Shown here one piece after another: positions 14,105-34,789 of a stretch of DNA of 64,000 nt; the stretch's first letter is position 1, and the number at the start of each line of letters is the position of its first letter. This DNA is from an uncultured Alphaproteobacteria bacterium (GTDB lineage Bacteria; Pseudomonadota; Alphaproteobacteria; RF32; CAG-239): assembly GCA_944393685.1 (NCBI GenBank), contig CALYAW010000002.1:79586-143585 (forward strand). The letters are read 5' to 3'. The notes beneath the pieces are model-generated. The model made no database searches. It was not told the DNA's origin and worked only from the letters and a program-made list of their open reading frames with translations. Made by a program: the position numbers and the translations under genes.

Positions 14105-14140
14105 AAAAAAGCCCCGAAATAAATATTTCAGGGCTTTTTT
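14105..14140. terminator. Bidirectional terminator hairpin
   Basis: A6-GCCCCGAAAT..ATTTCAGGGC-T6 (one mismatch) between convergent ORFs. Confidence 0.6.
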
Positions 14141-14141
14141 C

Positions 14142-19608: not shown

Positions 19609-21631
19609 CTTTCAATCTTTTGGCAATCTGGGACAATTCTGAAACAGAAACATTTATGCGATTACTGATATCAATTAAATCATTTGTTCCATCGCTATAA
19701 GCTATTAAATCCATCATGTGTTGAACAATTGATTTTGTGTCTTTTGTGCTTGTAGTTGGGTAAAGACCTCTCTTTCCAAGCTGTGGTTCTCCCAAACATT
19801 TTATTTTATACTTTTTATTTCCTTCTATCGTTGTAATTAATTCTTTATATAACTCAAAAGTTTCTTGCAAGGCATCTGCTGTTACAAAGTTTAAATTGTC
19901 TCCTGAGGTATGATATTCTGGATAAGTTCCATATTTACTTCTTATTACAGAACAGAACGGTAAATCAACTCCTGGAGCACAATATTGTCTCTCGTCAGAG
20001 CCTCTGTCTAAAAAAGTATAAGATTTATAATCTGATGTATTATTACACAATACATTTAGCGCGACTTTGTCTGCAAAAGTATTGCCATATCTGCTTGGAA
20101 TATAAGAAAATTTTCCAGGATCTCCAACACAGGTCAAAATAAAACCCGCCTTTACTTTTTGTTTCAAATGGTGCAAATGTTCTGTAATATATGTGATACT
20201 TCCTATGGTTTCCGGCGCAAAAACAAAACGATAGGTATAATGATTAGGATGAACACTCAGCCACTTTGCTAAAAAGATTGCCAATACAGGACCTGATAAT
20301 TCATTGTTGGCCATGGAAGGATGGCATACATACGTAGAAAACATTATTTCTTCATCAGTTTCTCCCGGAATAACCAAATCCGCGTATGTTAGGGCTCCTT
20401 CTTTTAATTCAGAGTCTATAAAAATTTCATATACATCTTCTTTCAACGACAATCTTTGTGTTTCTGTCATGCAAAAACCGTAGCGCTCTTTATAATAAGA
20501 GGTAATGTAAGGAATCAAGTTCGGTTGTTGGGGTAATGTATATATGATTTCATTCAACTCTTTTAGTGAGACCTTTTTATGAACAGGGATTGAATAGCCG
20601 ACGACATGCAAATTATTTTCTTTAAAATCAATAATTTTATTTCCTGTACTATCTTTAATCCACGCATCTTTGATATTCCATTCTTGAGGAATAACCCAGT
20701 CTTGAACTTGTGTTCCACTGGCTTTCTCATGAATTTGAAGGTGGGGCATAATCTTTTGAAGCTCTTGAAGTGTTTGACGAACGCCATTTCCTGTTAGTGA
20801 ACGGCATATGGGAAACAAACGCTTTATCCACGAATAAATGACCTTACCTTCTCCACCTTGATACAACGCTGCCTTATCGCAAGAATTGTTTTTTATATTA
20901 TCGTCAATAGCATCACACGCTTGTTTCATATCAATTAGTTTTATAAATGAATTTCCTACATAACTTTTCTTTTCTATGTTCCTTTGGCCAAATTCATTAA
21001 ATAATATATAGCCTAATGAAATTAAATCTCTATCTAGATAACGAACATACATTGAATATGTTTTGCTTGAGCGAGTTCCTTCTTCATTAATATAATCTGC
21101 AGTAAATTCTTTTGAAAAACGATATGGAACTAAATTACATGTTTCTACATAGTGGCAAAATGTTGCAGAATCAGAATAGTCAATATTAATAAATAAATTT
21201 TTTGCCCCTATTGCATAGAACCAGCCAAAAATAGAATCTGCGCCAAAAGAATCTTTGTAATCTAAAGAAGTAAGATAGTCTTTGTCTTTCCCATAAACTG
21301 CAAATGAATAAATTGGGTGTTTTGTTCTCTTAAAATCATTTCTCTGTAATGCTTGTTTTGATAAGATACCTGTTTTAGAGGTGGTTTTGTTATAATCGAA
21401 TGTCTTCCCTTTACAAAAACCCCAGTTATATGTCGGAAAAACCAAATTTCCATTATCGCCGACAACTTCTTTTAATGTATCTATAATCATATCTAAAGAA
21501 AGGTCTTCTTTTCGTTCCTGTGCATCACAAAGCAATTGCGTAACATCTGAAGATACAAATAAAGTATCACCCTTTTGAAGCCCCATGTTGATAATATTTT
21601 TTTTAAAGTCATCTATAAGCATATTACACAC
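19580..21631 (-). CDS. Fusion protein: N-terminal AAC(3)-family N-acetyltransferase plus C-terminal M28-peptidase/DUF4910-like domain
   Basis: N-terminal 'MGLQKGDTLFVSSDVTQL' resembles the AAC(3) (Antibiotic_NAT) motif 'GDxLxVHSSL'. The C-terminal half (HPSMANNELSGPVLAIFLAKWL...FVFAPETIGS) is M28/aminopeptidase-like. 683 aa. Confidence 0.5.
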   Translation of the reverse strand: MCNMLIDDFKKNIINMGLQKGDTLFVSSDVTQLLCDAQERKEDLSLDMIIDTLKEVVGDNGNLVFPTYNWGFCKGKTFDYNKTTSKTGILSKQALQRNDFKRTKHPIYSFAVYGKDKDYLTSLDYKDSFGADSIFGWFYAIGAKNLFINIDYSDSATFCHYVETCNLVPYRFSKEFTADYINEEGTRSSKTYSMYVRYLDRDLISLGYILFNEFGQRNIEKKSYVGNSFIKLIDMKQACDAIDDNIKNNSCDKAALYQGGEGKVIYSWIKRLFPICRSLTGNGVRQTLQELQKIMPHLQIHEKASGTQVQDWVIPQEWNIKDAWIKDSTGNKIIDFKENNLHVVGYSIPVHKKVSLKELNEIIYTLPQQPNLIPYITSYYKERYGFCMTETQRLSLKEDVYEIFIDSELKEGALTYADLVIPGETDEEIMFSTYVCHPSMANNELSGPVLAIFLAKWLSVHPNHYTYRFVFAPETIGSITYITEHLHHLKQKVKAGFILTCVGDPGKFSYIPSRYGNTFADKVALNVLCNNTSDYKSYTFLDRGSDERQYCAPGVDLPFCSVIRSKYGTYPEYHTSGDNLNFVTADALQETFELYKELITTIEGNKKYKIKCLGEPQLGKRGLYPTTSTKDTKSIVQHMMDLIAYSDGTNDLIDISNRINVSVSELSQIAKRLKDADLFEEVQ

Positions 21632-22391
21632 CTAAAAGAAAAGATACGTCTTTTGCAAAGTCATCAAGATTTTCTTTGCTGTTTTTATTTGTTTCTATGG
21701 ATATTATCGCATCTGCCGGAAAAACTTCTGCCTTCAAATATTGAATATCCAGTCGGCCTGTTCCTAAATGAGGGTGCGCATCATACGGAGAAGTCATATC
21801 TGAAACGTCCGATAAATGAAACATCTGAGGGTGAAATTGTAATAAATCTTTTATATAAAAATATGCTTCTATACCTTGTGAATTTGCAGAACAAATCGCA
21901 TGCCCTATATCTAAACAAAAACCACATTTCGCAATTTCTTTAATTAAGGAGATTTCTTTGATTGTTGATCCTCGGCAATATTCTCCTCCCATTTTATTTG
22001 GCAAGGCCACAAATGGTTTGTTTTCAATTAAGGCTCGTGATTCTTTTAATTTTGACAGTTGACGAGCCGTCTCTTCGACAGTCCCGTCAATACCTCCATG
22101 AAAAATTATGTATTTTGCCTCCAATTCGTCAGCAAAACGTTTTGTTTGTTCATAGATTTCTATATTGCGTTTTTCATGATCTTTTTTGGCAAGATTAAAA
22201 CCATGCGCAAAATGTGGATTATGAATGATAAACGGAATTTGTAATTTTTTCCATAAATCTAAGGTTTCCTGTGTATCCGGAACAACATATAACTCTATAT
22301 AATCATAAACTCCGCGCTCATATAATTTTTCTGCTTCGTGCAGATAAGAATCGGTATTAATCGACCATAATTTTAGCCCTAGTTTATACAT
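21624..22391 (-). CDS. Xylose-isomerase-like TIM-barrel sugar phosphate isomerase/epimerase
   Basis: 255 aa; AP_endonuc_2-like pattern (FHGG...; HLGTGRLD). Confidence 0.6.
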   Translation of the reverse strand: MYKLGLKLWSINTDSYLHEAEKLYERGVYDYIELYVVPDTQETLDLWKKLQIPFIIHNPHFAHGFNLAKKDHEKRNIEIYEQTKRFADELEAKYIIFHGGIDGTVEETARQLSKLKESRALIENKPFVALPNKMGGEYCRGSTIKEISLIKEIAKCGFCLDIGHAICSANSQGIEAYFYIKDLLQFHPQMFHLSDVSDMTSPYDAHPHLGTGRLDIQYLKAEVFPADAIISIETNKNSKENLDDFAKDVSFLLGV

Positions 22392-23064
22392 TATGCATAA
22401 CCTTATATTTTATTTCTGCCATTTTCCAATCTTCAAGTGTATCAATATCTTGTATTTGACTTTCATCCATCTCAAAAAAAGAAGTTCTATTTTCTTTTCT
22501 TTGAAAAATGTAGTTTTTCATAAAGTAAAACATTCCAACATCATGGTACAATGGCTCTAAATCTTGAGATCGCTTGGAGGCATTTTCTGGTTCACGATAT
22601 TCAAGATATCCTTGTTGGTTAATTCGGAAAGCTCTTTGAATCGGAAAAGAAAATCTTACAACTGGCGTTAATGCATCACAATCTTTATAATAAAATTCTT
22701 CATAGGCTCGCCTTAATATTTCCCCTGTTAAAAAAGGAACACACGGATAAATACAACAGATTGTATCAAAATTCTTACCTTGTTCTTGATACTTTTCAAT
22801 CACTTCTTTCAATACATCTGCTGTTGTCGCATAATCATTGGATGTTTGTTGTGACCTCATAAACGGAATTTTTGCGCCATACTTTAGAGAAATATCAGCA
22901 ATTTCTTCATCTTCCGTCGAAACCATTATCTCACTAAAAATTTGGCTATCTTGTGCAGCTTTTATTGCATAAGATATCATTGGCTTTCCCATAAATTCTT
23001 TGATGTTTTTGCGTGGGATTCTTTTAGAGCCGCCTCGCGCTGTGATAATAGCTACAGAAGACAT
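22384..23064 (-). CDS. pseF: Acylneuraminate/pseudaminic acid cytidylyltransferase (CMP-nonulosonic acid synthetase, PseF/NeuA family)
   Basis: 'AIITARGGSKRIPRKNIKEFMGKPMISYAIKAA' is the canonical CTP_transf_3 N-terminus. Confidence 0.85.
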   Translation of the reverse strand: MSSVAIITARGGSKRIPRKNIKEFMGKPMISYAIKAAQDSQIFSEIMVSTEDEEIADISLKYGAKIPFMRSQQTSNDYATTADVLKEVIEKYQEQGKNFDTICCIYPCVPFLTGEILRRAYEEFYYKDCDALTPVVRFSFPIQRAFRINQQGYLEYREPENASKRSQDLEPLYHDVGMFYFMKNYIFQRKENRTSFFEMDESQIQDIDTLEDWKMAEIKYKVMHNV

Positions 23065-24164
23065 TACTCTATCTCCTTTACCCTCTTTATAATTTCTTCC
23101 AAATCAGTATCCGTTAAACTAGGATAAAGTGGAAGAGATATACATTGTGAGTAATATTGTTCCGCTTTGGGATAATCCCCTCGCTTGTAGCCAAAGCGAG
23201 TATAGTATGGCTGAGTATGAACCGGAATATAATGAACTTGAAGATTTAATCCGTTTTCTCGTGCTTTAAAATAAAAATCACGACGATTTTTAACTAATAT
23301 CGGATATAAATGAAAACAGGCATTAGAATATTTTCTTTCTTGAAGATGTTTTATTCCTAAGTTTTTATTATAAAAATCAACGATTTCACGACGGCGTTTT
23401 TTGAATACATCTAGTTTCTTTAGTTGGCTTATTCCTAAAGCTGCTTGAATATCTGTCATGCGATAATTATAACCAAGTTCCCGCATTTCATATTCCCAAG
23501 TTTCTACCATGTCTTTATCTTTGTGCATTCCATGAGATCGTAGTGCACAAAGTTTTTCGTATAATTCTTTGTTATTGGTAGTAATTGCTCCTCCCTCACC
23601 CGTGGTGATAGTTTTGACCGGGTGGAAAGAAAAAACCGTCATATCCGAATAAGCGCAAGATCCAACCTTTGTATCTTTATAATCTGAACCAATTGCGTGA
23701 GCGGCATCTTCTATAACATACAAATTATGTTTATGAGCTATTTCAGAAATTGCTTCCATGTCACAGGATTGCCCTGCAAAATGAACTGGTATCAATACCT
23801 TTGTCTTATCTGTAATGTGCCTCTCAATTTCTTGCGGTGATATATTTGCTGTTTCTTCTTCTATATCTGCAAATACAGGTGTTGCCCCCGTATAACATAT
23901 ACAATTGGCTGAAGACAAAAATGTTATGGGTGATGTTATTGCCTCATCGCCTTTGCTTAGTCCTGTGGCCATTGCCGCTATATGCAATCCCGCCGTAGCA
24001 TTTGAAACTGCAACACAATATTTGGCTCCTGTATATTTGCAAATCTCTTGTTCAAATTCCTTAATCTTAGGTCCGCAAGTAAGATAATCGCTCTTTAAAA
24101 CATCCATTACTGCCGAAATGTCGCTATCATCTATTGTTTGATGCCCATATCCGTATTTAATCAA
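23064..24164 (-). CDS. pseC: PLP-dependent DegT/PseC-type aminotransferase (UDP-4-amino-4,6-dideoxy-N-acetyl-beta-L-altrosamine transaminase-like)
   Basis: DegT_DnrJ_EryC1 family: N-terminal 'GYGHQTIDDSDISAVMDVLKSDYLT', the PLP region 'SFHPVKTITTGEGG' and a C-terminal SPAT signature. Overlaps pseB by 8 nt. Confidence 0.85.
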   Translation of the reverse strand: MIKYGYGHQTIDDSDISAVMDVLKSDYLTCGPKIKEFEQEICKYTGAKYCVAVSNATAGLHIAAMATGLSKGDEAITSPITFLSSANCICYTGATPVFADIEEETANISPQEIERHITDKTKVLIPVHFAGQSCDMEAISEIAHKHNLYVIEDAAHAIGSDYKDTKVGSCAYSDMTVFSFHPVKTITTGEGGAITTNNKELYEKLCALRSHGMHKDKDMVETWEYEMRELGYNYRMTDIQAALGISQLKKLDVFKKRRREIVDFYNKNLGIKHLQERKYSNACFHLYPILVKNRRDFYFKARENGLNLQVHYIPVHTQPYYTRFGYKRGDYPKAEQYYSQCISLPLYPSLTDTDLEEIIKRVKEIE

Positions 24165-25161
24165 TGTCTAAATCCTTTATTAAATTTTTCATATCATCTA
24201 CACTTAGCCACCATGTGTTTGTTCCAGAATTATATGAGAACCTTGGCGCCACCGGTTTTCCTCCCATTTCTTTGGCATGCTCATGCCACCATGGCGTATC
24301 TGGATAAATGACATAGTACCTATCAAACTCCATGGTATGATGAGCGTCTTCTTCTGAGATCATTTGCTCGTGTATCTTTTCTCCTGGACGAATGCCTATT
24401 TCTCTTATCGGCAAATCTGGTGCAATCGCTTGAGCAAGTTCTGGCATCCGCATAGAGGGAATTTTTTTGACAAATAATTCTCCTCCTTGCATTACTTCAA
24501 AAGCATTAATCACCATTTCCACTGCTTCTTCCAGCTTTAGCCAAAAACGTGTCATGGAACAATCTGTAATGGGAAGATATTCTGCTTTTTCTTTTACAAG
24601 ATTCAAAAAGTACGGGATTACAGAACCTCTTGAGCCTGCAACGTTGCCATATCGTACAACGGAAAACTTTGTCCTTTTATCCCCTCTGTATCCATTGGCT
24701 GCAATAAAAAGTTTGTCTGAACATAATTTTGTTGCTCCATACAAATTAACCGGAGAACTTGCTTTGTCCGTTGATAACGCAACAACTTTTTCAACATTGC
24801 TTTCAAGTGCAACATCTATAACATTTTGGGCTCCTAGAACATTGGTCTTGATTGCTTCAAAAGGATTGTATTCACAGGCTGGGACCTGTTTTAAGGCGGC
24901 GGCATGAATTACGTAGTCCACATTTTCCATAGCTAAACGTAGCCGTTCTTTATCCCTAACATCGCCAATAAAAAATCTTATTTTTGGTAAATATTTTTTT
25001 AGTTCAGGCATATTAGACATCATAAACTGTTTAAACTCGTCTCTTGAGTATATGATAATCTTTTTAACGTCCGGATTGCTTTCTAAGACTGTTTTTGTAA
25101 ATTTTTTACCAAAGGATCCCGTGCCACCTGTGATAAAAAGAGTTTTTCCGCTAAAATCCAT
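24157..25161 (-). CDS. pseB: UDP-N-acetylglucosamine 4,6-dehydratase (inverting), PseB/FlaA1 family
   Basis: Near-colinear with C. jejuni/H. pylori PseB as I recall it: 'LFITGGTGSFGK', 'IIYSRDEFKQ', 'FFIGDVRDKERL', 'YNPFEAIKTNVLGAQNVID', 'LSTDKASSPVNLYGATKLCSDKLF', 'RYGNVAGSRGSVIPYF'. Confidence 0.95.
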   Translation of the reverse strand: MDFSGKTLFITGGTGSFGKKFTKTVLESNPDVKKIIIYSRDEFKQFMMSNMPELKKYLPKIRFFIGDVRDKERLRLAMENVDYVIHAAALKQVPACEYNPFEAIKTNVLGAQNVIDVALESNVEKVVALSTDKASSPVNLYGATKLCSDKLFIAANGYRGDKRTKFSVVRYGNVAGSRGSVIPYFLNLVKEKAEYLPITDCSMTRFWLKLEEAVEMVINAFEVMQGGELFVKKIPSMRMPELAQAIAPDLPIREIGIRPGEKIHEQMISEEDAHHTMEFDRYYVIYPDTPWWHEHAKEMGGKPVAPRFSYNSGTNTWWLSVDDMKNLIKDLDID

Positions 25162-25168
25162 TTTTCCT

Positions 25169-26341
25169 CTACTCTACCCTTATATTTCTTGATATTGTTC
25201 GAACGATATCATACCCGTCCCAAAACACGCCGATATCCATAGCTTTGCCTATGGGAACGATGCGATCTATCCCTTTGACATTGGAATTTATCAAGCTATC
25301 ACAAAAAAAACTTGAGTCAACTCCAAAATAGGTAACGGTTTGAAATCTATCACTAATAATATGTAAAAGTTCTTTTATATCTGATAATGAATATTCATAA
25401 AAATATCCACTCTTTCCTCGATGGTTAACAACTCCATCATCTAATTTTGAAAGCTCTTCGCGATAAATCAAATTCTCTTCTCTGGTACAGCTCAAAAAAT
25501 TCGGATTATTTATCGCCTCCTCACACATTAGTGTATATTTGTCTATTGCTGAAGCATCTTGCAATAAATATTTTTGCTTAGACGCCTCATAGATTGCCTC
25601 CCAAAATATATCTCTGGCTTTGGATGAATCATTTTGCCATAAAATAAGTTGTGGAGAAGAGCAAGCGTTTTGATCCATTAAATATGTATCATTATAAAAA
25701 TTATCTGCCAACCTTTTAATTTCTTCAGAACTTGCTTCTATGATGCTGTGACCATCTATTATAGCTAAGGAATATCTATCAGCAAATGTGATATCTATGC
25801 ATCTCGGTTTTGTCGGCATTTGTTTGATTAAAGAAATCGTTTCATCTCCTCCCCATATCATACGAACATCTGCCATCTTACAAAATACAGATGTAATCTC
25901 ATCATCTCGAGGATATGTTATAAATGCTGTTCTTGTTTCTATTTCAGGATATTTTTTTAATACGTCCTTAAATATATCGCATAAAATTTCTACCTGCGGA
26001 TATTTCTTGCTGGGTAAACGCACAATGTTAGCATTACCAGCCAGTAATCCAAACAAAAAAGTAAATGCGAAATTAATCGGTATATTAGATGGTGCTATAT
26101 GAAAGCATAATCCTCGTCCCAACCATCTGTTGCATTCTCCGAAGTCTCTTTTTAACTTTTCTATATTTTTCTTTCTTCCCCAAAATGCTAACGCGGATAA
26201 ATCCGGATATTGACGGATTAAGGAAGATGTCATTATTTTCTCAGATACATTGGTTATAAAACTGCAAACATCTTCATTATACACCGATAATGGTGTTTGA
26301 ATGATATTTTCTGAACCTATAATAAAATTAACGTTTTTCAT
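25169..26341 (-). CDS. LuxC-like acyl-CoA/acyl-protein reductase
   Basis: 390 aa. LuxC family by length and overall pattern; compare V. cholerae O1 RfbO. Confidence 0.55.
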   Translation of the reverse strand: MKNVNFIIGSENIIQTPLSVYNEDVCSFITNVSEKIMTSSLIRQYPDLSALAFWGRKKNIEKLKRDFGECNRWLGRGLCFHIAPSNIPINFAFTFLFGLLAGNANIVRLPSKKYPQVEILCDIFKDVLKKYPEIETRTAFITYPRDDEITSVFCKMADVRMIWGGDETISLIKQMPTKPRCIDITFADRYSLAIIDGHSIIEASSEEIKRLADNFYNDTYLMDQNACSSPQLILWQNDSSKARDIFWEAIYEASKQKYLLQDASAIDKYTLMCEEAINNPNFLSCTREENLIYREELSKLDDGVVNHRGKSGYFYEYSLSDIKELLHIISDRFQTVTYFGVDSSFFCDSLINSNVKGIDRIVPIGKAMDIGVFWDGYDIVRTISRNIRVE

Positions 26342-27404
26342 ATGTGTCGCTACATCCTCTCAATTCGGCATTTTTTATTCGACCGTAAATTTTAAAGTAT
26401 TTTCCTTTTCGCCCGCAAGGACAATCGTCTTCTCCCAAGATTGCTCCTTCATCTTCTGTTAAAATAATATGTCCGGGATAACTTGTCGGAAGAACGGACA
26501 AAAGCTCAATCAAGCCTTTCTCTCCTATATTTGCTTCGGAAAAATCTTTTGCTCTACGAATAATCACATCAGAATAATTGGAACAATGCATGTGCCCGTG
26601 CTCACATTCAACAAAAACAGATCCTAATTGTTCTGCCATTCCGTAATAATTATATACCTTCACGTTTCCTAAACATTTTTGTATTCGACGATTAAATTCT
26701 AAAACATCGACTGCCTGATCTTTTAGTTTTTTCCAGCCGCCTATGTGAAATAAAATCGCGTTTTTGATATTAAACGAGATATTATTTTCTTCTAATGCTC
26801 GAACAACAAATTGCCATATCATATACGTGTATCCAAACATTAAGATTGGCTCATTTTCGTGCTCTTTGATAAAATCAGAAACTTTTTGGATATTAATATT
26901 CATATTCTCATCTAATGCATATGTACTATTTCTGCCAAAAATCGAAAAACCTATAATCCCGGCTCCTCGAGCAGAATACATCGTCCGATCTTTTTTTATC
27001 ATTTCTGTATCTAAAAGCAATAATGGCAACCTAGACTTACCAATAAAAGAAGAAATAATTTCATTCAATGTTTTGGTTTGATTGCGAACATTCTCTGCAT
27101 CCAAAAATATTTTAGAAACCGCCTGTCCGGATGTCCCTGATGATGTAAGCGTTTTGGTAATCTGTTCGTCCGAAACACTTTTTAATTCAAATTGTTTGAA
27201 AAGTCTGACAGGGATAAAAGGTAAATCTGCACTAGAAAAAACTTCTTGTGGATTGTACCCCAAGGCTTTAAGAATTTTGGCATATTCAGGACAATTTTTA
27301 TAATGTTTTACCGTAAGTTCTTTGAGAATTTGCGTCAAAACTTTATTTTTCTCGGATTTTGTTAATGAATATGGGGCTATCTGAAACAAGTCATTTAATG
27401 TCAT
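26328..27404 (-). CDS. LuxE-like acyl-protein synthetase
   Basis: 358 aa; LuxE family by N-terminal 'TKSEKNKVLTQILKELTVKHYKNCPEY' and a C-terminal Cys-containing region; compare V. cholerae O1 RfbN. Confidence 0.55.
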   Translation of the reverse strand: MTLNDLFQIAPYSLTKSEKNKVLTQILKELTVKHYKNCPEYAKILKALGYNPQEVFSSADLPFIPVRLFKQFELKSVSDEQITKTLTSSGTSGQAVSKIFLDAENVRNQTKTLNEIISSFIGKSRLPLLLLDTEMIKKDRTMYSARGAGIIGFSIFGRNSTYALDENMNINIQKVSDFIKEHENEPILMFGYTYMIWQFVVRALEENNISFNIKNAILFHIGGWKKLKDQAVDVLEFNRRIQKCLGNVKVYNYYGMAEQLGSVFVECEHGHMHCSNYSDVIIRRAKDFSEANIGEKGLIELLSVLPTSYPGHIILTEDEGAILGEDDCPCGRKGKYFKIYGRIKNAELRGCSDTYEKR

Positions 27405-28059
27405 CTTTTATTTCCTTTATAAAAACATCTTTCGGCTCAGAAAAGATTGCTCCCAATGCAGTATATAGATTCAAAACAGCCATATTTTGCGAGCTTATAC
27501 GCCCATTTAATTTCTTGTAGCCTTTTTCATATGCTGTTTTGCAAGCCGTTGCATATAATGCCATCGCAGCTCCGCTCATGCGATATTTTTCATCTACGGC
27601 GGCCAAATACACAAATAGCGAAGAAATATCCTCTTCTTGCAATGCTAAAAATCCTATAGGCTTATCCTTAAAGATGGCAACTAATACCTTATCTAGGTTG
27701 TTGACATATTCTTTTAAAACATATCTCGAAATATCTTTTGAACATAATGGAGCCACATGAAAACGCCTATCATAAAGAAATGAATCTTCTGCTATCTGTA
27801 AAATCTCATTTTTATATTCCGATGTTTCAATGATAGGTAAACGTATAAATTTATCCAAATCTATTGAACATTTATTTAAACTTACGGAGGCTTTTATGGT
27901 TCTGTCTGCAAAATAAAAGCCCTGCTGCTGCATCAATATTTCCGAATTAGCGGAACTAGGCAATTCAACACGCAAATATTGAGCTCCTGACGCATTCCAA
28001 TCTTGAATTTGTGCTGCATCATCGTTAAATACCTTAAAAGCTCCATAATCTTTTAACAT
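27391..28059 (-). CDS. GNAT-family N-acyltransferase (candidate PseH-like or acyl-group transferase)
   Basis: 222 aa; acetyl-CoA-binding-like region 'LAAVDEKYRMSGAAMALYATACKTAYEKGYKKL'. Confidence 0.5.
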   Translation of the reverse strand: MLKDYGAFKVFNDDAAQIQDWNASGAQYLRVELPSSANSEILMQQQGFYFADRTIKASVSLNKCSIDLDKFIRLPIIETSEYKNEILQIAEDSFLYDRRFHVAPLCSKDISRYVLKEYVNNLDKVLVAIFKDKPIGFLALQEEDISSLFVYLAAVDEKYRMSGAAMALYATACKTAYEKGYKKLNGRISSQNMAVLNLYTALGAIFSEPKDVFIKEIKDDIK

Positions 28060-29456
28060 AGTTTATTCAACTCCGCATATAAAACTTTTCCGGCTTCATT
28101 TTTGGGAATTTGTTTTAGATATTGAACATGAAATGCTGTAAAATTCAAATGTGTTTTATTGGCTACGAAACTTTGAATCTCTTTTATTCTTTTATCATCT
28201 GTAATAAAAATTGTCATAGCATCATCTTTTCCGGCACATACACAATCCAAATCTTGATATTGCGTTTTTATCAATCTCTCTGTTTCATCCAAATTAACTC
28301 TATTTCCAAAAATTTTCAAAAATCTTTTTTTTCGCCCGACAATACTATATACCCCATCTTTGTCAAACTTTGCCATATCTCCTGTCTGCAGCAATCCATG
28401 GCGCTCGTCTTCTTTGATTAGATCTTCTCCCTTTTCCGCATATCCAAGGGCCACATTATCTCCCTCATAAACAAGTTCTCCCACTGTTTCCGGTGTCGTA
28501 ATCGTTTGACCCTGCTCGTCTATCAAATGAAATTTTCCTCCCGGAATTGCAATTCCCATACAACCAAATTTTTCTAAGGAAATATTTGATGGAAGGTATC
28601 CCATCCGTGCCGTTGCTTCTGCTTGACCATACATAACGACAAACTCTTTTCCTTCTTTTTGGGCGTATTCGGCAAATTTTTGGTGCAAAATCGGCAATAT
28701 TTTTCCGCCGGCTTGCGTCATTGATTTTAAATATGGAAGTTTGCGCCTAAAAAACATTAGCTTATCAAGCATTTCATAGGTATAAGGAACGCCGGCAAAT
28801 GATGTAGCCTTCTGTTCACTAAACAATGTCCAAAATTCACGCTGCATTAATGTCTTATCTGTTAAAATTAATGTAGCGCCTACAGCCAGATGCGTGTTTA
28901 TTACCGATAAACCATATGTATAATTCATCGGTAACGTGGTAATTGGTCGTTCAGTTCCGTTTAAATGCAAATATTCAACTATAGAATGCGTGTTGGCTTC
29001 TAAGTTTTTGTAACTCTGACGAACAAATTTCGGAGAACCGGTGGAGCCAGATGTCGTTATTAGCAACGCTAATTCGTTGTACATTGGATAAGATGCTGTA
29101 TCCAATCTTTTAATCAGAGCATAATTACAATCTCGATAAACTTCTTCTCCTTCAAATTCACAAACTCGATTTTCTGGAAGCCATAAAAAATCTGGTTTAT
29201 AAAGATGTAAAAACGAAACCAATAAATCCTTATCTAGCTGCTCGTCCAGCATTAAAGGGACAATACCATGGTTGATAAATGCTGTATATCCTAATAAAGA
29301 GCCTATAGAATTTCGACATAAACAAAAGACTAAACATCTTTTGCCTACGGCAGCAGCCAATTTATCACCTTGTTGAGCGAGAAAAGCGTATGAGTAAGAT
29401 TTTCCCTCATCCGAAACAGCCGCTATCTTTGCTCCATATTGGCTAAAATTCCACAT
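28053..29456 (-). CDS. Stand-alone AMP-dependent adenylation enzyme (acyl-CoA/acyl-ACP ligase, DltA/RfbL-like)
   Basis: AMP-binding core motif 'LITTSGSTGSPKFV', and later 'YGQAEAT', 'GELVYEGDNVALGY', 'LQTGDMAKFDKDGVYSIVGRKK'; 467 aa. Confidence 0.85.
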   Translation of the reverse strand: MWNFSQYGAKIAAVSDEGKSYSYAFLAQQGDKLAAAVGKRCLVFCLCRNSIGSLLGYTAFINHGIVPLMLDEQLDKDLLVSFLHLYKPDFLWLPENRVCEFEGEEVYRDCNYALIKRLDTASYPMYNELALLITTSGSTGSPKFVRQSYKNLEANTHSIVEYLHLNGTERPITTLPMNYTYGLSVINTHLAVGATLILTDKTLMQREFWTLFSEQKATSFAGVPYTYEMLDKLMFFRRKLPYLKSMTQAGGKILPILHQKFAEYAQKEGKEFVVMYGQAEATARMGYLPSNISLEKFGCMGIAIPGGKFHLIDEQGQTITTPETVGELVYEGDNVALGYAEKGEDLIKEDERHGLLQTGDMAKFDKDGVYSIVGRKKRFLKIFGNRVNLDETERLIKTQYQDLDCVCAGKDDAMTIFITDDKRIKEIQSFVANKTHLNFTAFHVQYLKQIPKNEAGKVLYAELNKLC

Positions 29457-30144
29457 TTCTTATCTCCTTAATCTCAAAAACTCTTCCGTGTCCAGGAAAA
29501 ACCTTCATAAACTCAGGCATGCTATTAAGAAAAGGCTTTGTTTTTGAAAGATATTTTTGTGAATTTCCACCCGGAAAACGTGTGATTACAGGCGTATTAT
29601 AAATTAAAGAATCTCCTGTAAAAATTGCCACATTATTTAAAATAAAGCAACAACTTCCTGGTGAATGTCCCTCACAGTGTTTGCAAAAAATCTCTTGCTC
29701 TTGCCAGATAAGAGACAACTCTTCTCCAAAGGTTTTATCCGCTGTTATACAAAAAGGAAAAATATCGTCAGTCTGTTCCAAAAACTCTTGTGTTAGATGT
29801 GTTCCTTCCTTTTCATCTTTGTATTCTAACGCTATTCTTATCAGGCTGGGATAATTGTTTCGACTATCAACAATAAATTCGGCACAGTTTTTTTGGCAGA
29901 TTAACTCTGTCGCATATCTCTTTTGTAAACGAGGATAACCTATAACATGATCAATATGTTCATGTGTTAAAAGTATCGTTATCTTTTGGGGAGAATATTG
30001 GGTCAAAAATTTATCCAACTCTTTACTCTCATTAGGATCAATAACCAGAGCTTCTTTGTTGGCACATAAAACATATGAGTTTGCATCAATGAATTTTGAT
30101 GCAAACTTATATATGTTTAATCCGTTTAAAACAATTTTTTCCAT
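29443..30144 (-). CDS. MBL-fold metallo-hydrolase
   Basis: 'LLTHEHIDH' HxHxDH motif. The ORF track start (30228) would overlap the ACP gene by 71 nt, so I prefer the internal Met 'MEKIVLNGL'. Confidence 0.7.
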   Translation of the reverse strand: MEKIVLNGLNIYKFASKFIDANSYVLCANKEALVIDPNESKELDKFLTQYSPQKITILLTHEHIDHVIGYPRLQKRYATELICQKNCAEFIVDSRNNYPSLIRIALEYKDEKEGTHLTQEFLEQTDDIFPFCITADKTFGEELSLIWQEQEIFCKHCEGHSPGSCCFILNNVAIFTGDSLIYNTPVITRFPGGNSQKYLSKTKPFLNSMPEFMKVFPGHGRVFEIKEIRNVEF

Positions 30145-30157
30145 ATTCTCTCGAGAT

Positions 30158-30394
30158 TTAAAAAGTGATGTCGTATTTGGCCAAAATTTCCTGACCTTTT
30201 TCAAAACTGGATAAATCAACAATATCATCTGGCTCTAACATAATATCAAAAGCCTCTTCCAATTGAGCAACCAACCCCATATGTCCAACAGAATCCCAGG
30301 CCGGAATATCTTGAAATTTTAGTTTTTTTGCAGCTTCTTCATCAATATCAAATGCCTGACAAAACGCTTGCGTATACTTTTCAATATTACTCAT
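30158..30394 (-). CDS. Acyl carrier protein (ACP #1)
   Basis: 78 aa; a phosphopantetheine attachment serine in 'DIPAWDSVGHMGLVAQLEEAF'. Confidence 0.8.
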   Translation of the reverse strand: MSNIEKYTQAFCQAFDIDEEAAKKLKFQDIPAWDSVGHMGLVAQLEEAFDIMLEPDDIVDLSSFEKGQEILAKYDITF

Positions 30395-31369
30395 TTAACA
30401 TATCTCCTTATAAGTATTTTCAATTTTTAATGCAATTTTCTCTGGCGTAAGGCCCGCCTGTTCCAATAGATATGAATAGCTTGCCGCATGTGGATATTCC
30501 CCTTGTGTCCCAATTATTAAATGAGGCGGGCGCTTCTTTAGCAGAGAAAGATTTTCTGCAACCGCACCTCCCAATCCGCCATATATTGAGTGTTCTTCAA
30601 CTGTAACAATTAATTTATGACTGAGACTTTCCTTAACGGCTTGTTTGTCCAACGGCTTGATGGTGTGCATATCCATAATTGTAGAGCTTATACCCTTTGA
30701 GGATAATATTTCTGCTGCTTTTAGAGAATTATAGACCATACTTCCTGTCGCTATAATTGCAACATCTTTTCCTTCGCGTAAAGTAATAGCCTTACCTATC
30801 TGAAAATCAAAGTCTTCCTTATATACAATAGGTAAATTATTCGGGCCTCCTATACGAATATATGTTGGACTAAAAACTTCTGATGTCGCTTGTAGTACCT
30901 TTACCATTTGTGTTGCATCACTTGGCGATAAAACCGTAACCTTGGGAAAAGACCGATATAAGGCTATGTCATGTAAAGCATAATGCGTCGGTCCACAATC
31001 TCCTTGTGTTAGCCCCGAAAAAATTCCTATCAGTTTTATATTAAGTCCCATATAGGCCATAGCAACATGTGTTTGATCTGCGCAACGGAGAGAGGTAAAC
31101 GCCGCTTGAAATGCTAAGAAAGGAATATAACCTTCATTAGATAACCCTGCTGCAACTCCAATGGCATTTTGTTCTGAAATTCCCATGTTGATAAAATTAT
31201 CTGGATATTGATTTTGTATTCTATGAAAACCGATCAATGCTCCTTGATCTGCAGTCATGGCTATAATATTCTTTCTTTCGCCAATCATATCATAAAGAAC
31301 TTTGCCTAATGTTCCTCGTTGTCCCAATAAAGCCCATGTCCTTATGTCTGTGGAAGAAAATTTATACAT
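30395..31369 (-). CDS. Transketolase C-terminal section (Pyr plus C-terminal domains), split-transketolase subunit B
   Basis: 324 aa; 'ADQTHVAMAYMGL', 'GPTHYALHDIALYRSFP' and a C-terminal domain. It pairs with the adjacent N-terminal subunit gene. Confidence 0.85.
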   Translation of the reverse strand: MYKFSSTDIRTWALLGQRGTLGKVLYDMIGERKNIIAMTADQGALIGFHRIQNQYPDNFINMGISEQNAIGVAAGLSNEGYIPFLAFQAAFTSLRCADQTHVAMAYMGLNIKLIGIFSGLTQGDCGPTHYALHDIALYRSFPKVTVLSPSDATQMVKVLQATSEVFSPTYIRIGGPNNLPIVYKEDFDFQIGKAITLREGKDVAIIATGSMVYNSLKAAEILSSKGISSTIMDMHTIKPLDKQAVKESLSHKLIVTVEEHSIYGGLGGAVAENLSLLKKRPPHLIIGTQGEYPHAASYSYLLEQAGLTPEKIALKIENTYKEIC

Positions 31370-32180
31370 TTTTTAATTCCTCCATTGCTTGTTCATATTG
31401 TTGCTGTGTTAAAGGATGAACGTGCCATTCTGGATTATTTTCAATGAATGAAACACCTTTTCCTTTGATTGTCCTTGCAATAATGGCTATCGGCTTTTTT
31501 GTTGAACGATGCGAAAAAGCGTTGACTAAATCAGGAATATTATGCCCATCTATAGTTAATACCTCAAATCCAAAAGATTGCCATCGTTCTGATAGCTTAT
31601 CTTTATTCACAATATCTTGCGTTGGGGCGTCTAGCTGGAGCTTGTTCTCATCAATAATAACCGTTATATTATCTAATTGGTGATGTGAAATAAAAGATGC
31701 TGCTTCCCATATAGAACCTTCATCACATTCTCCGTCTCCGATAACAACATAAATATGAGCATTATTATTTTGTTTTCTTAAAGCTAAGGCTGTGCCTGCC
31801 GCCAAAGATAGCCCCTGTCCTAAAGAACCTGATGAAAACTCAATACCAATAGTTGGATCTTTTCTTGGATGTGTCCAAAAATTTTTACTATCTTGTTTAA
31901 AAGAAAATAACTCATTTTCTGAGATGAAACCGGCTTCTTTCAAAACTGCATATAGTGCTATTGCTCCATGCCCTTTACTTAAAATCAGTCTATCTCTTTC
32001 TGGATTACAGACGTTTTTGGGAGATATATTCATAGTATGTAAATATAAGGTTGTTAGAATTTCTGAAAGCGATAATCCCCCTCCTATATGAGCTCCGTAA
32101 CTTCCTGCATGGAGTGTCATCCTCAATATATTTTTACGAACTTGCTGAGCGGTATTTATCAGCATTTTCATGTCATTCAT
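31362..32180 (-). CDS. Transketolase N-terminal section (TPP-binding), split-transketolase subunit A
   Basis: 'GAHIGGGLSLSEILTTLY', a ThDP-binding 'VIGDGECDEGSIWEA' (GDG...E...N-type motif), and 'SKGHGAIALYAVL'. Confidence 0.85.
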   Translation of the reverse strand: MNDMKMLINTAQQVRKNILRMTLHAGSYGAHIGGGLSLSEILTTLYLHTMNISPKNVCNPERDRLILSKGHGAIALYAVLKEAGFISENELFSFKQDSKNFWTHPRKDPTIGIEFSSGSLGQGLSLAAGTALALRKQNNNAHIYVVIGDGECDEGSIWEAASFISHHQLDNITVIIDENKLQLDAPTQDIVNKDKLSERWQSFGFEVLTIDGHNIPDLVNAFSHRSTKKPIAIIARTIKGKGVSFIENNPEWHVHPLTQQQYEQAMEELKNV

Positions 32181-32917
32181 ATTTTCCCTCCATTTGCAAT
32201 AATCTCCATTCCATTGATAAAAGAAGAATTATCACTCGCTAAAAAGGCTGCTATTTCTGCAATCTCGTAAGGACTTCCTTTTCTTTTTAAGGCACATTCT
32301 TCAATCATACGTTTTTCAACAAAATCTTTTACCGATTTGCCCATTGATGTCTCTATCAAGCCTGGTGCGATAGCATTAACACGAATGTTAAAAGCACCTA
32401 ATTCTGCTGCTAGTGTCTTTGTCCATGCTGCCAATGCCGCCTTTGCTGTACCATAAGCTGAATTACCCGCTGATAAATCTATGCCGGAAACAGATGTGAT
32501 ATTTATAATAGAACCTGATTTTTGTAAACACATTTTTCGCAAGACAATTTGAGTAATTTCCATGGCGGAAAAAAGGTTAATATCGTATACTTCTTTTATT
32601 TGAGAAACTGGTGTTCGCAGAAAACTAACTCCATGACCCACACCGGCATTGTTAACTAAAATATCAATATTATTTTTGCCTAAGACAAATTTTTTTAGCT
32701 CATTGCGCATAGATAAAGTATCTCTCAAATCAAAAAAAACCATGTCTATGGTGGTATTGCAGGATGTTTCTGTTTTTTTTACAAATTCAATAAAATCTTC
32801 TGTCTCTTTTCTAGCATGCGCTATAATATGTGCCCCTTTTTGAGCAAAAATTTCTACCATTGCTCTACCTATTCCTCGATTGGAGCCTGTGATAAGAGCT
32901 GTCTTGTTTCTAAGCAT
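32177..32917 (-). CDS. Short-chain dehydrogenase/reductase (FabG-like 3-oxoacyl-ACP reductase) #1
   Basis: 'ALITGSNRGIGRA' Rossmann motif, 'NNAG' and a YxxxK catalytic dyad (YGTAKAAL). Confidence 0.8.
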   Translation of the reverse strand: MLRNKTALITGSNRGIGRAMVEIFAQKGAHIIAHARKETEDFIEFVKKTETSCNTTIDMVFFDLRDTLSMRNELKKFVLGKNNIDILVNNAGVGHGVSFLRTPVSQIKEVYDINLFSAMEITQIVLRKMCLQKSGSIINITSVSGIDLSAGNSAYGTAKAALAAWTKTLAAELGAFNIRVNAIAPGLIETSMGKSVKDFVEKRMIEECALKRKGSPYEIAEIAAFLASDNSSFINGMEIIANGGKI

Positions 32918-34070
32918 TTTGCCCTCTCTTAAAATATTCTATCCAATATTTTATTTTCTCTTCCCTATTTAATTTACCTTCCGGGGTTTTATATTTGCTT
33001 ATTCCGTTTGTTTTTACATCTTTAAAATCGACAACTCCAAATCCCCACGATAATCCTACGCCAAAAGATGCTAAACAAAGATATTGATGTTTCTTCTCGG
33101 AAAGTTCTCTGCATATATCTGTAACTATAGAAGCTGTTCCACAGTTACCATACAAAGAAAAAGTATCCGTTGACCATTTTTCTTTTGGTAATCCGGCATA
33201 CATAGCTACTGTTTTCACAATTTGCTTATTAGCTTGATGAAAAGCAAAATAATCAATATCTGATATTTCTTTACCGGTATAATTTAGAATTTTCTCAATT
33301 CCTTTGGGACCTACATCGGTCGTAAATTTAAAGACATCAATTCCTTTCATTATTTCATCCCATAAATGCCACACATTTCCGGATTGATCTTTTTCTTCAA
33401 TGTCGATTATGTCTTTTTGAATGGGCAATGCCCAACCTCCAGCAGGGGCAATTATCTTGTCCCAATCTTTTCCTCTTGTTCCCGTGTAAAAATAAGCTGT
33501 TTTTTCTTCTGCTGTCCACTCTAGAAGAGTGGCTGTTCCCGCATCACCAAACAACATATTGGAATTGCGGTTGCGTCTATCTGAGTGTGTGCTCGAAATT
33601 TCTCCCGCAAGCAACAAGCATTTTTTCGAAGCGCCGCTTGATATTAACGAATGAGCTAACCATAATCCATGCACATAAGCAGAGCACGCCAATCCTGTAA
33701 TATCAAAACAGGTACAATCTTCACTCAAATTTAAACGCCCTTGTAAAATACATGCTGATGCTGGATATTTATAATCTAGTGATGTTGAAACCATAATTAA
33801 TGTATCGATTGAATCCTTGTCTATATTTAAAAATTCTATCAAATCACGTGCTGCTGCTTCGCATAGATCACAGTTCGTCGTTCGTTCATCAGCAACATAA
33901 CGGGTTCCTAGCCCTAAAATTTTTTTATTACGTTCCAATAGTTTCGGATCGTTGTTAAAAAATTCTATTTCATCATCTATATTAATGAAATGTTCAGGAA
34001 CAACAGCCGTAATCCCACTAATCTTGACGTGACTAAATTTTGATTTAGGCATTGCTATATTGCTCCACAA
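32910..34070 (-). CDS. KAS III (FabH)-like ketoacyl-ACP synthase #1
   Basis: 386 aa; 'GLACSAYVHGL' active-site Cys region and a C-terminal 'HQANKQIVKT' (ACP_syn_III_C His/Asn region). Confidence 0.75.
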   Translation of the reverse strand: MWSNIAMPKSKFSHVKISGITAVVPEHFINIDDEIEFFNNDPKLLERNKKILGLGTRYVADERTTNCDLCEAAARDLIEFLNIDKDSIDTLIMVSTSLDYKYPASACILQGRLNLSEDCTCFDITGLACSAYVHGLWLAHSLISSGASKKCLLLAGEISSTHSDRRNRNSNMLFGDAGTATLLEWTAEEKTAYFYTGTRGKDWDKIIAPAGGWALPIQKDIIDIEEKDQSGNVWHLWDEIMKGIDVFKFTTDVGPKGIEKILNYTGKEISDIDYFAFHQANKQIVKTVAMYAGLPKEKWSTDTFSLYGNCGTASIVTDICRELSEKKHQYLCLASFGVGLSWGFGVVDFKDVKTNGISKYKTPEGKLNREEKIKYWIEYFKRGQNA

Positions 34071-34789
34071 TCAATTATATAATTTTGGGCTGTTATCCAT
34101 TCTGCTTGTTTGGATAGTAAAAATACAACAGTATTAGCAACATATTGGGGTTTCCCTATACCCATAGGATATTTACCTTCTGCAAAAGATCTGGAAATTT
34201 CATCTGCCATGTTGGTAGAAATCAGAGATGGCGAAACACAATTTACGCGAATATATGATGGCGCTAGCTCTCGAGCAATTGCTTGCATCGTTGCTATTAA
34301 AGCTCCTTTTGATCCGGCATATTCTGTCATTCCCGGATCACAATGGACTCCTCCACTTGAAGCAATACAAACTACAGAGCTACCTTTGCCATTATTATTA
34401 CGTTTATCTGTAAATCCTTTTGTCATAAAAACAGGAGAAAAATAATTAATATTAAATAATTTCTGCATCTCTGTAAAATCGATGGATTTTAGCGGCAGTA
34501 TCCTCCCTACTCCCGCACAATTTGCTAGTCCTTGAAATTTTCCATATTTATCCTTTAGTTCTTTTACATAACTTGGTAGCTGCTCTATATTTTCTGCTAA
34601 ATCTTTTATCTCTATATAGATATTCTCAGGATGCTTGGATTTTGTCTTCATTCCCAATAAACGTTCTTCATTTCTGGCTATAGCTATTACGCTTGCTCCT
34701 AATTCATTCAATCGTAGCGCAACCGCTTCTCCTATGCCTGATGAAGCCCCCGTTACAATAAATCTTTGTTCTTTGGTAAATTGTATCAT
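34055..34789 (-). CDS. Short-chain dehydrogenase/reductase #2
   Basis: 'FIVTGASSGIGEA', 'NCAG', 'YAGSKGAL' YxxxK. Confidence 0.8.
   Translation of the reverse strand: MIQFTKEQRFIVTGASSGIGEAVALRLNELGASVIAIARNEERLLGMKTKSKHPENIYIEIKDLAENIEQLPSYVKELKDKYGKFQGLANCAGVGRILPLKSIDFTEMQKLFNINYFSPVFMTKGFTDKRNNNGKGSSVVCIASSGGVHCDPGMTEYAGSKGALIATMQAIARELAPSYIRVNCVSPSLISTNMADEISRSFAEGKYPMGIGKPQYVANTVVFLLSKQAEWITAQNYIIDCGAI

Follow-up and report, generated by a model that had tools for sequence, protein, structure and literature searches.

A group of six adjoining genes that includes relatives of the bioluminescence genes luxC and luxE very probably belongs to a cassette for producing an N-acyl substituent of an amino sugar. 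The group occupies positions 25169 to 30394 of a 64,000-nucleotide stretch of DNA from an uncultured Alphaproteobacteria bacterium (contig CALYAW010000002.1 of assembly GCA_944393685.1), and this whole stretch is referred to here as the window. The encoded proteins are a LuxC-like acyl-thioester reductase, a LuxE-like acyl-protein synthetase, an adenylate-forming ligase, an acyl carrier protein (ACP) designated ACP2, a GNAT and a metallo-β-lactamase-fold (MBL) hydrolase. A preliminary description made from the sequence had likened them to the tetronate genes of Vibrio cholerae O1. Comparison with other genomes indicated that the conserved unit is larger than this group, because a FabG-like short-chain dehydrogenase/reductase (SDR) and a split transketolase (TK) accompany LuxE and LuxC far more often than the GNAT and MBL proteins do. 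Our reading, which is tentative, is that the six genes form the 3′ half of a glycan-tailoring cassette (approximately 25169 to 32917) that would assemble a short, hydroxylated acyl group other than acetyl on a dedicated carrier protein and then N-acylate a nucleotide-activated 4-amino-4,6-dideoxy sugar with it.

All six genes were confirmed as intact and on the minus strand, each with a score well above chance, and flagged neighbors overlapped by 7 to 14 bp or were spaced by 13 bp or less. The open reading frame (ORF) of the MBL gene extends from 29443 to 30228, and use of the gene-caller start at 30144 leaves no overlap with ACP2. Profile matches and catalytic residues were detected for every family named in the preliminary description, including the two features on which it had staked the identification, similarity to the LuxC and LuxE profiles and retention of their active-site residues. 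The LuxC-like protein aligned with Photobacterium phosphoreum LuxC (PDB 7xc6_A; E = 7e-8) across LuxC residues 132 to 422, and its Cys227, in the motif DQNAC, was matched to the catalytic Cys286 in DQQAC. A score of 95.6 bits was obtained with PF05893 (cutoff, 21), covering only the central part of the model (positions 82 to 251 of 401). For the LuxE-like protein, the match to 7xc6_E (E = 1.5e-18) placed Cys351 of RGCS on the acyl-bearing Cys364 of KGCS, and PF04443 scored 200.5 bits (cutoff, 24.9) over residues 6 to 355 of 358. These residues were retained in related loci from many phyla: LuxC Cys227 and the aldehyde dehydrogenase-type Asn86 in 81 of 81 homologues each, LuxE Cys351 in 83 of 83, ACP2 Ser35 in 58 of 58 and the MBL motif HxHxDH in 15 of 15. 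Cys351 was likewise invariant among 45 aligned LuxE representatives with 32 to 54% identity to the query, and TSSGTSG and GGWK were invariant as well.

The window proteins therefore share folds, families, the LuxE acyl-cysteine and the LuxC catalytic cysteine with the lux fatty acid reductase (7xc6), and because these cysteines are conserved, the chemistry expected is that of carboxylate to acyl-AMP, acyl-S-enzyme and aldehyde. The resemblance does not extend to bioluminescence. The luminous-bacteria system includes LuxD and luciferase, whereas neither LuxD nor LuxAB was found among the families of the 24 proteins of the operon in which the genes lie. Scores against the true equivalogs were far under the cutoffs, at 48 bits versus 750 for LuxC (NF052251) and 75 bits versus 550 for LuxE (NF052244, long-chain-fatty-acid--protein ligase), and the window LuxC is shorter at its N terminus than that of P. 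phosphoreum by about 90 to 100 amino acids. Judged by these scores, the LuxE-like protein is a member of the superfamily and not an orthologue of bioluminescence LuxE. Because the context here is glycan synthesis, a short polar acid, and not myristate, is presumably used as the substrate.

The distribution of the cassette was examined in a scan of one genome per species, which gave at least 597 loci. The best 80, at 50 to 75% identity, were analyzed by calling ORFs, comparing them with the window proteins and clustering them all against all; counts below are mostly over 79 loci. The closest match in a species-representative genome was 75% identical. At the protein level, at least 8,000 clusters at 90% identity shared words with the LuxE-like protein (the best 120 were 69 to 100% identical), and 2,208 clusters at 50% identity matched it at an E value of ≤1e-3, many of them LuxE-LuxC or LuxC-LuxE fusions of 750 to 870 amino acids. 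Hosts of the best 80 loci included Lachnospiraceae, Oscillospiraceae, Selenomonadaceae, Bacteroidales, Muribaculaceae, Tannerella, Flavobacterium, Treponema, Sphaerochaeta, Desulfovibrionaceae, Mucispirillum, Smithella, Gastranaerophilales and Erwinia amylovora.

LuxE was present in all 79 loci, the ligase and LuxC in 74 each, an ACP2-type carrier in 68, the FabG-like SDR in 52 and the split TK in 31 to 33; the MBL protein was detected in 13 or 14 loci and the WecD-like GNAT in 7. Gene order was also maintained: LuxE was followed by LuxC in 76 of 82 cases and immediately preceded by the ligase in 46, and the ligase came after the ACP2-type carrier in 26. The SDR gene directly preceded that for the N-terminal TK subunit (TKN) in 25 of 31 cases, and the trio of SDR, TKN and the C-terminal subunit (TKC) adjoined LuxE/LuxC in 28 to 33 loci. 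The evolutionary core is thus ACP, ligase, LuxE and LuxC, usually with the SDR and often with SDR plus TK, while GNAT and MBL are rare accessories. The boundary drawn in the preliminary description was consequently too tight, as it excluded the SDR and split TK genes (30395 to 32917), although its view of GNAT and MBL as additions to the set was sound.

The neighbors of these loci were recurrently of glycan type, which indicated that the loci carrying the Lux cassette are glycan loci. DegT-type aminotransferases were found in 29 loci, NeuB-type synthases in 18, GT2 glycosyltransferases in 14, PglD-like hexapeptide acyltransferases in 14, FabA-like dehydratases in 14, Acetyltransf_3 GNATs in 11, members of a family designated unk246 in 10 to 14, and lactate/malate dehydrogenase-like proteins and FkbM methyltransferases in 7 each; initiating sugar transferases were also recurrent. 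One of four N-acyltransferase families was present in 38 of 80 loci, and a frequent order was DegT, N-acyltransferase and then ACP-ligase-LuxE-LuxC.

The split TK of the cassette proved to be atypical. Its closest relative was the split TK of Carboxydothermus hydrogenoformans (6yak for TKN, E = 9.6e-71; 6yaj for TKC), which has the same two-gene architecture. TKN keeps the thiamine diphosphate (ThDP) motif GDG...N and the histidines equivalent to the donor-binding H37, H77, H110 and H258 of the human enzyme, and TKC keeps Glu66 (human E366, which activates the cofactor) and His129 (Escherichia coli H473). In human TK, S345, H416 and R474, together with R318, bind the substrate phosphate, and D424 forms a hydrogen bond with the 2-hydroxyl of the acceptor. 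The equivalents of these residues in the window protein are L45 for S345, F117 for H416, G175 for R474 and C125 for D424, while all four are kept in both the human and the C. hydrogenoformans enzymes. Among 36 cassette-linked C subunits from diverse phyla, the H416 position was never His, the R474 position was Gly in 34 and the D424 position was never Asp (Leu, Phe, Ser, Ala, Cys or Val). By contrast, 34 of 34 kept the catalytic Glu and 34 of 36 the H473-equivalent His. The cassette TKs appear from these substitutions to be a distinct subfamily. As the catalytic residues are kept and those that bind phosphate and the 2-hydroxyl are lost, cassette TKs should transfer a C2 ketol between nonphosphorylated substrates, with an acceptor that lacks an α-hydroxyl. 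An aldehyde derived from the carboxylate of an aliphatic acid has this property. The C. hydrogenoformans enzyme, which has not undergone the loss of His, Arg and Asp seen in the cassette TKs and also keeps the channel Ser, is known to accept simple nonphosphorylated aldehydes with hydroxypyruvate as the donor (PMC7661550).

The pathway proposed here would begin with adenylation by the ligase of a small acid, probably a dicarboxylic or hydroxy-dicarboxylic one, and its loading onto ACP2. LuxE would adenylate the carboxylate that remains free, and the acyl group on Cys351 would pass to Cys227 of LuxC and be reduced with NAD(P)H to an aldehyde. The split TK would then move a two-carbon ketol from a nonphosphorylated donor onto the LuxC aldehyde, and the FabG-like SDR would reduce the new ketone, giving a polyhydroxy acyl-ACP that resembles a 3-deoxy-aldonic acid. 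The WecD-like GNAT would N-acylate a sugar amine, here most likely that of the PseC product, with the WecE product as the alternative; the outcome would be a pseudaminic acid (Pse) with an unusual N7-acyl group, GNAT standing in for the missing PseH. Mis-loaded or stalled acyl-ACP would be hydrolyzed by the MBL protein. Where TK is absent, as in V. cholerae O1 and Aeromonas, the aldehyde would be reduced to an alcohol, yielding a tetronate-type ω-hydroxyacyl group. Reduction of a carboxylate to an aldehyde is likely to lie on the pathway, and extension of the LuxC aldehyde by TK is a plausible step to which we commit ourselves less firmly. The preliminary description had proposed that a short hydroxy acid is activated, loaded onto the ACP and transferred by GNAT; it gave LuxE and LuxC no role.

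The assignments of GNAT and MBL were examined separately. The best structural match of GNAT was WecD (RffC), the TDP-fucosamine acetyltransferase (PDB 2fs5), and the two-domain WecD fold was recovered, although identity was only 15 to 19% and the profile score was far under the WecD cutoff (27 versus 219 bits). Action as an N-acyltransferase on a 4-amino-4,6-dideoxy sugar nucleotide is a reasonably likely function, with a donor that is presumably other than the acetyl coenzyme A (acetyl-CoA) used by WecD. A type II thioesterase fills the slot between ligase and LuxE in 8 loci, and it never occurred together with the MBL protein (14 loci). As the MBL protein is glyoxalase-II-like and the two are mutually exclusive, a thioesterase or editing function, as the preliminary description had suggested, fits and is proposed for MBL.

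The six genes lie inside a run of 24 genes on the same strand (16503 to 39416) in which gaps never exceed about 40 bp (Table 1). Promoter and terminator scans at the ends of this operon gave chance-level results. The pseB-pseC pair begins 7 bp after LuxC, and of the canonical six-enzyme Pse pathway (B, C, H, G, I and F) only B, C, F and I were detected in the operon; no operon protein matched PseH (TIGR03585) or PseG (TIGR03590) at an E value of ≤0.01, and these may be encoded elsewhere in the genome. The PseC product is favored as the acceptor because of the position of pseB-pseC and the lack of PseH in the operon. PseC is on its sequence the putative maker of one candidate acceptor amine, and the identification of its product as the specific acceptor is offered provisionally. 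The WecE-like aminotransferase, the 473-amino-acid protein and unk246, which lie together at the start of the operon, may provide a second candidate acceptor and transferase; the relation of unk246 to GNAT was established by profile-profile comparison. WecD-like N-acyltransferases, carrier proteins and 4-aminotransferases (WecE-like and PseC) are thus each encoded twice in the operon. Three genes between pseF and pseI (18928 to 22391) encode the TIM barrel, AAC(3) fusion and formyltransferase-like proteins, which may replace the missing Pse steps or add a formyl or other group.

Table 1. Genes of the 24-gene operon, listed in the direction of transcription (positions are those of the window; aa, amino acids)
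Coordinates	Strand	Gene product	Match or feature
38286-39416	minus	WecE-like 4-aminotransferase	E = 1e-170, over cutoff
36868-38289	minus	473-aa protein	No family match; no predicted membrane segments
36131-36871	minus	unk246, 246 aa, second WecD-like N-acyltransferase	
35004-36134	minus	FabH-like β-ketoacyl-ACP synthase (KAS) III	NF009519 (two FabH-like genes, E = 5e-74 and 7e-80)
34789-35007	minus	ACP1	PP-binding, 7e-6
34055-34789	minus	SDR of FabH/ACP1 block	
32910-34070	minus	FabH-like KAS III	NF009519
32177-32917	minus	FabG-like SDR, 246 aa, proposed ketoreductase partner of TK	TIGR01830 3-oxoacyl-ACP reductase, E = 9e-59
31362-32180	minus	Split TK, N-terminal (PP) subunit TKN, 272 aa	Transketolase_N, E = 1.8e-38
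30395-31369	minus	Split TK, C-terminal (Pyr + C) subunit TKC, 324 aa	6yaj, E = 3.5e-58
30158-30394	minus	ACP2 carrier protein, 78 aa	Weak PP-binding/ACP matches; Ser35 in DSVGH
29443-30144	minus	MBL-fold glyoxalase-II-like hydrolase, 233 aa	Lactamase_B, E = 6e-10; GloB-type matches; HxHxDH
28053-29456	minus	Stand-alone AMP-binding adenylate-forming ligase, 467 aa	E = 6e-36
27391-28059	minus	GNAT, WecD-like, two-domain, 222 aa	Acetyltransf_10/_1, E of about 1e-6 to 4e-7
26328-27404	minus	LuxE-like acyl-protein synthetase, 358 aa	PF04443, E = 5e-59
25169-26341	minus	LuxC-like acyl-thioester reductase, 390 aa	PF05893, E = 3.8e-27
24157-25161	minus	PseB	TIGR03589, E = 4e-151, over curated cutoff
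23064-24164	minus	PseC	TIGR03588, E = 1.9e-146, over curated cutoff
22384-23064	minus	PseF	TIGR03584, E = 1.4e-84, over curated cutoff
21624-22391	minus	Xylose-isomerase-like TIM barrel	
19580-21631	minus	683-aa fusion: AAC(3)-like N-acetyltransferase + DUF4910/DUF2172 (aminopeptidase-like) + HTH_47	
18928-19608	minus	Formyltransferase-like protein, short	Asn/His/Asp signature apparently intact
17928-18947	minus	PseI, pseudaminic acid synthase	TIGR03586, E = 8e-144, over cutoff
16503-17915	minus	470-aa last gene of operon	Weak matches: BFO_1060 glycosyltransferase family, Capsule_synth

Several observations weigh against the proposed pathway. Sets of LuxE-LuxC-SDR-TK genes are duplicated in three loci (L014, L017 and L029), which a model with a single distal carboxylate does not account for. 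The operon has, besides GNAT and PseC, the second WecD-like transferase (unk246) and the WecE-type aminotransferase, and the unk246 family travels with the Lux cassette in other loci. Within the operon, the AAC(3)-like domain or the formyltransferase-like protein could, from their family matches, acylate the PseC product instead of GNAT. Three near relatives lack pse genes after LuxC, and the Lux and FabH halves of the operon may jointly make a single product that ends up on the sugar derived from WecE. The nearest solved relatives of the ligase are oxalate-CoA and malonyl-CoA ligases (about 1e-17), a similarity inseparable from that to the A domains of nonribosomal peptide synthetases. Lastly, no biochemical test of the cassette or of any homologue was found in the literature searched. 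No equivalog was matched by the ligase at its cutoff in the profile search, and the oxalate-CoA/malonyl-CoA similarity was not used to name its substrate, as the A domains score alike.

Tandem LuxE-LuxC(-SDR-TKN-TKC) duplicates with a single ligase were observed in the three loci named above and also in L031, L048, L065 and L072, and they suggest repeated use of the set or the attachment of two different acyl groups. A more speculative possibility, about which we are doubtful, is that LuxE/LuxC, a phosphate-blind TK and a ketoreductase make up an unrecognized carrier-protein machine that converts a carboxylate to an aldehyde, adds two carbons and so builds polyhydroxy acyl chains resembling sugar acids; given the duplicated sets in some loci, such a machine may act more than once.

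An explanation that dispenses with chain extension is a plain tetronate-type route, in which LuxE/LuxC and the SDR reduce the distal carboxylate via the aldehyde to an alcohol, GNAT transfers a product such as a 2,4-dihydroxybutanoyl or 4-hydroxybutanoyl group, and TK lies off the pathway, supplying or recycling a precursor. The core plus a reductase without TK does occur in V. cholerae O1, Aeromonas and Enterobacteriaceae, and 23 of 79 loci have the SDR but no TK. Published masses of Pse derivatives can also be accommodated. In strains with the Aeromonas island, the derivative of A. piscicola AH-3 has a mass of 376 Da (oxonium ion, 377.16) and that of A. hydrophila ATCC 7966 a mass of 422 Da (oxonium ion, 423.16); AH-3 has in addition an unidentified 102-Da moiety. 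By arithmetic, 316 − 42 + 102 (C4H6O3, dihydroxybutanoyl or an isomer) gives 376, so that the 376-Da sugar equals Pse5Ac7Ac in which one acetyl is swapped for a C4H6O3 acyl; this agrees with the pathway proposed here as well, without proving it. Against this route, the SDR-TKN-TKC trio lies inside the cassette here and in about 40% of loci, and the TK subfamily lacks the residues for ordinary sugar-phosphate work. Furthermore, an alternative to TK replaces it almost exclusively: 10 loci have an acetolactate synthase (ALS)-like ThDP enzyme and an extra NeuB-like enzyme of the type that condenses phosphoenolpyruvate with an aldehyde, and TK is also present in just 1 of them. For the window, a plain route is thus considered unlikely. 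The ALS-like and NeuB-like pair may be another route of aldehyde extension, and the aldehyde generator LuxE/LuxC is repeatedly linked with alternative aldehyde consumers.

Loci with the ALS-like and NeuB-like genes in place of TK were L019, L037, L049, L050, L052, L054, L061, L077 and L085; a FabA-like dehydratase was often present, and some had two NeuB-like genes.

The FabH/ACP1/SDR genes (32910 to 36134) are, by their families, a putative second acyl-building block, in which two FabH-like proteins, ACP1 and an SDR could be the minimal set for a β-hydroxyacyl group, e.g., 3-hydroxybutanoyl or 3,5-dihydroxyhexanoyl. In near relatives with a LuxE 75 to 81% identical to that of the window, the whole block ACP1-FabH-SDR-FabH-FabG-TK-ACP2-(MBL)-ligase-GNAT-LuxE-LuxC was kept in this order (L007, L087, L089, L090 and L091). 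The 3′ side of the block in near relatives has an Ldh-like gene and a GT2 gene, or a methyltransferase gene followed by miaA/mutL. As downstream pse genes are missing from three of them, the Pse link is local to the window operon and not a property of the cassette. The constant linkage of FabH and ACP1 in these relatives makes a single product possible. In such an assembly line, the ACP2 product would prime FabH-type Claisen condensations, or the reverse, and a longer, polyketide-like polyhydroxy acyl group would be placed on a dTDP-4-amino-4,6-dideoxyhexose derived from WecE and not on Pse. The conserved order, the relatives without pse, the WecE-like and WecD-like genes that open the operon and the 7 loci in which the unk246 family occurs with the Lux cassette and a WecE-type DegT protein all speak for this arrangement. 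However, FabH-type genes were found in just 6 or 7 of the 79 loci, which shows that the Lux cassette does not depend on them, and two ACPs, two WecD-like transferases and two aminotransferases fit separate acylations equally well. We regard a joint assembly line as improbable.

Formation of glycolyl-ACP by the TK, as proposed for QncN/QncL-type systems, would give an N-glycolyl sugar and leave LuxE/LuxC to serve another purpose; the split TK does lie directly upstream of the ACP gene, and N-glycolyl legionaminic acid has been suggested for Tannerella forsythia UB4, but neither a lipoyl-bearing E2-like partner nor an oxidizing component was found in the operon, the ACP gene in most cases lies behind other genes and ahead of that for the ligase, and the invariant LuxE-LuxC pair and the SDR-TK adjacency are left unexplained, which makes this very unlikely. 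No more can be said for lipidation of a glycan with a long-chain fatty aldehyde or acyl group produced by a lux-type fatty acid reductase: this is favored by the family names LuxC, LuxE, FabG, FabH and ACP and by authors who read similar flagellin islands as fatty acid synthesis with a possible "liposugar" (PMC7874193, PMC4875605), yet no LuxD, LuxAB, elongating KAS I/II or enoyl reductase was found among the family matches of the operon proteins, dehydratases occur in only some loci, the LuxC and LuxE proteins score far below the true equivalogs and related loci, where their products are known, make short hydroxy-acyl groups.

Comparison with V. cholerae O1 was revisited in view of these results. 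The window has the same kind of enzyme set, namely ACP2, ligase, LuxE, LuxC, FabG-like SDR and GNAT, if RfbK is the ACP of the V. cholerae set, as we assume. Each set belongs to a surface polysaccharide locus with a 4-amino-4,6-dideoxy sugar and combines a stand-alone ATP-dependent ligase of about 470 amino acids with a reductase, an N-acyltransferase and the activities of LuxE and LuxC. The likeness thus holds in kind; the correspondence of individual gene letters given in the preliminary description does not. In V. cholerae, the tetronate genes are rfbK-O/wbeK-O (VC0248 to VC0252) (PMC3441752), and VC0249 (RfbL/WbeL) is a 471-amino-acid protein with an ATP-binding domain (PMC3441752). RfbM (VC0250) is an iron-containing alcohol dehydrogenase (PMC3441752), RfbN is a LuxE-LuxC fusion encoded by 2,478 nucleotides (PMC9201469, PMC9915646, PMC3441752) and RfbO (VC0252) is annotated as an acetyltransferase (PMC9201469, PMC9915646). 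LuxE and LuxC are therefore fused there and separate in the window, an iron alcohol dehydrogenase takes the place of the SDR, and a transferase annotated only as an acetyltransferase compares with a WecD-like GNAT. The V. cholerae set also lacks TK and MBL and acts on GDP-perosamine; this likeness is set by published annotations, and the tetronate pathway of V. cholerae itself rests on homology and mutant phenotypes. A perosamine context was not upheld, as no operon protein matched the perosamine pathway and the operon has Pse and WecE-type 4-amino sugar genes instead. A tetronate-type product is likewise improbable because of the TK in the cassette, which argues for another product.

Another parallel was found in flagellin glycosylation islands of Aeromonas group II and enterobacteria, which carry ACP, FabG, an AMP-dependent synthetase, LuxE and LuxC beside pse genes (PMC7874193, PMC4875605). 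The same core cassette thus lies next to pseB/pseC in both settings, and ACP, SDRs, split TK, ligase, LuxE and LuxC follow the same order in an E. amylovora locus (L059). The islands retain PseG and PseH, whereas the window operon lacks both, and the window adds the WecD-like GNAT, the MBL protein and the FabH/ACP1 block to the island-type core.

Among sugars of known structure, the flagellins of Treponema denticola carry a Pse-configured sugar with a 2-methoxy-4,5,6-trihydroxyhexanoyl group. Its acyl skeleton is that expected from malyl semialdehyde plus a C2 ketol, followed by ketoreduction and O-methylation, and it is treated here as a lead and not as evidence. In the Tannerella forsythia papers, Lux-type genes in the Pse locus are not mentioned, and reviews of the Tannerella system describe the enzymes responsible for attaching non-acetyl N-acyl groups to nonulosonic acids as unidentified and as a major unsolved problem.

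The cassette type is not categorically new, since genome papers have drawn attention to it and a named analogue exists in V. cholerae. The variant described here is absent from those papers: it joins the Lux core to an SDR and to a TK subfamily without sugar-phosphate residues, and it is further marked by the WecD-like transferase, the MBL protein and the linkage to a FabH/ACP block and to a Pse pathway without PseH and PseG. Serotype, phage receptors and immune recognition are all shaped by the non-acetyl N-acyl groups that nonulosonic acids and 4-amino sugars carry, and a cassette that is widespread, including in gut Bacillota, Bacteroidales, spirochetes, Erwinia and Aeromonas, is nevertheless annotated as fatty acid synthesis. 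The interest of the system rests on this breadth and on the open origin of exotic N-acyl groups on sialic-acid-like sugars. If the proposal of a carrier-protein machine is right, it would be a source of such groups on pseudaminic and legionaminic acids and 4-amino sugars, with the T. denticola substituent and the 376- and 422-Da Aeromonas derivatives as examples. A model in which carboxylate reduction is followed either by simple reduction or by TK extension would permit prediction of glycans from genomes. It would also imply a natural TK subfamily for nonphosphorylated, non-α-hydroxylated aldehydes, a specificity that is the goal of enzyme engineers working on E. coli TK.

Some minor observations were made in the course of these comparisons. 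In Treponema vincentii OMZ 806 (L042, positions 4694 to 11077), an ACP-MBL-LuxE arrangement without LuxC lies beside genes for a 4-hydroxybutyryl-CoA-dehydratase-like protein (HpaB family), an acetyl-CoA hydrolase/transferase, a FabA-like protein and a NifU-like protein, and this LuxE serves a different context; a related ACP-MBL-LuxE-LuxC-ligase arrangement was present in L058, L071, L080 and L082. In L087, a GmrSD-type restriction gene and relaxase/MobC genes follow the Lux block (13178 to 14866 and 18206 to 19271), which suggests that this glycan locus adjoins mobile DNA. The 470-amino-acid gene after pseI occupies the same position as that for GtfS (Tanf_01245), the Pse/legionaminic acid transferase of T. 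forsythia, and BFO_1060, to whose family it has a weak match, belongs to the family of the Tannerella nonulosonic acid transferase. Identical copies of the sequence were present in metagenome assemblies, on contigs of up to 316 kb. The housekeeping genes of the window (Gram-negative-type ParC, MltB_2, DacD-like and PRK07471-type HolB), together with the names attached to GNAT homologues, suggest a low-GC Gram-negative proteobacterium, possibly an alphaproteobacterium of the gut known from a metagenome-assembled genome. Elsewhere in the window, in a housekeeping region, an ORF of 1,394 amino acids (56673 to 60857) had no NCBIfam match at an E value of ≤1e-10.

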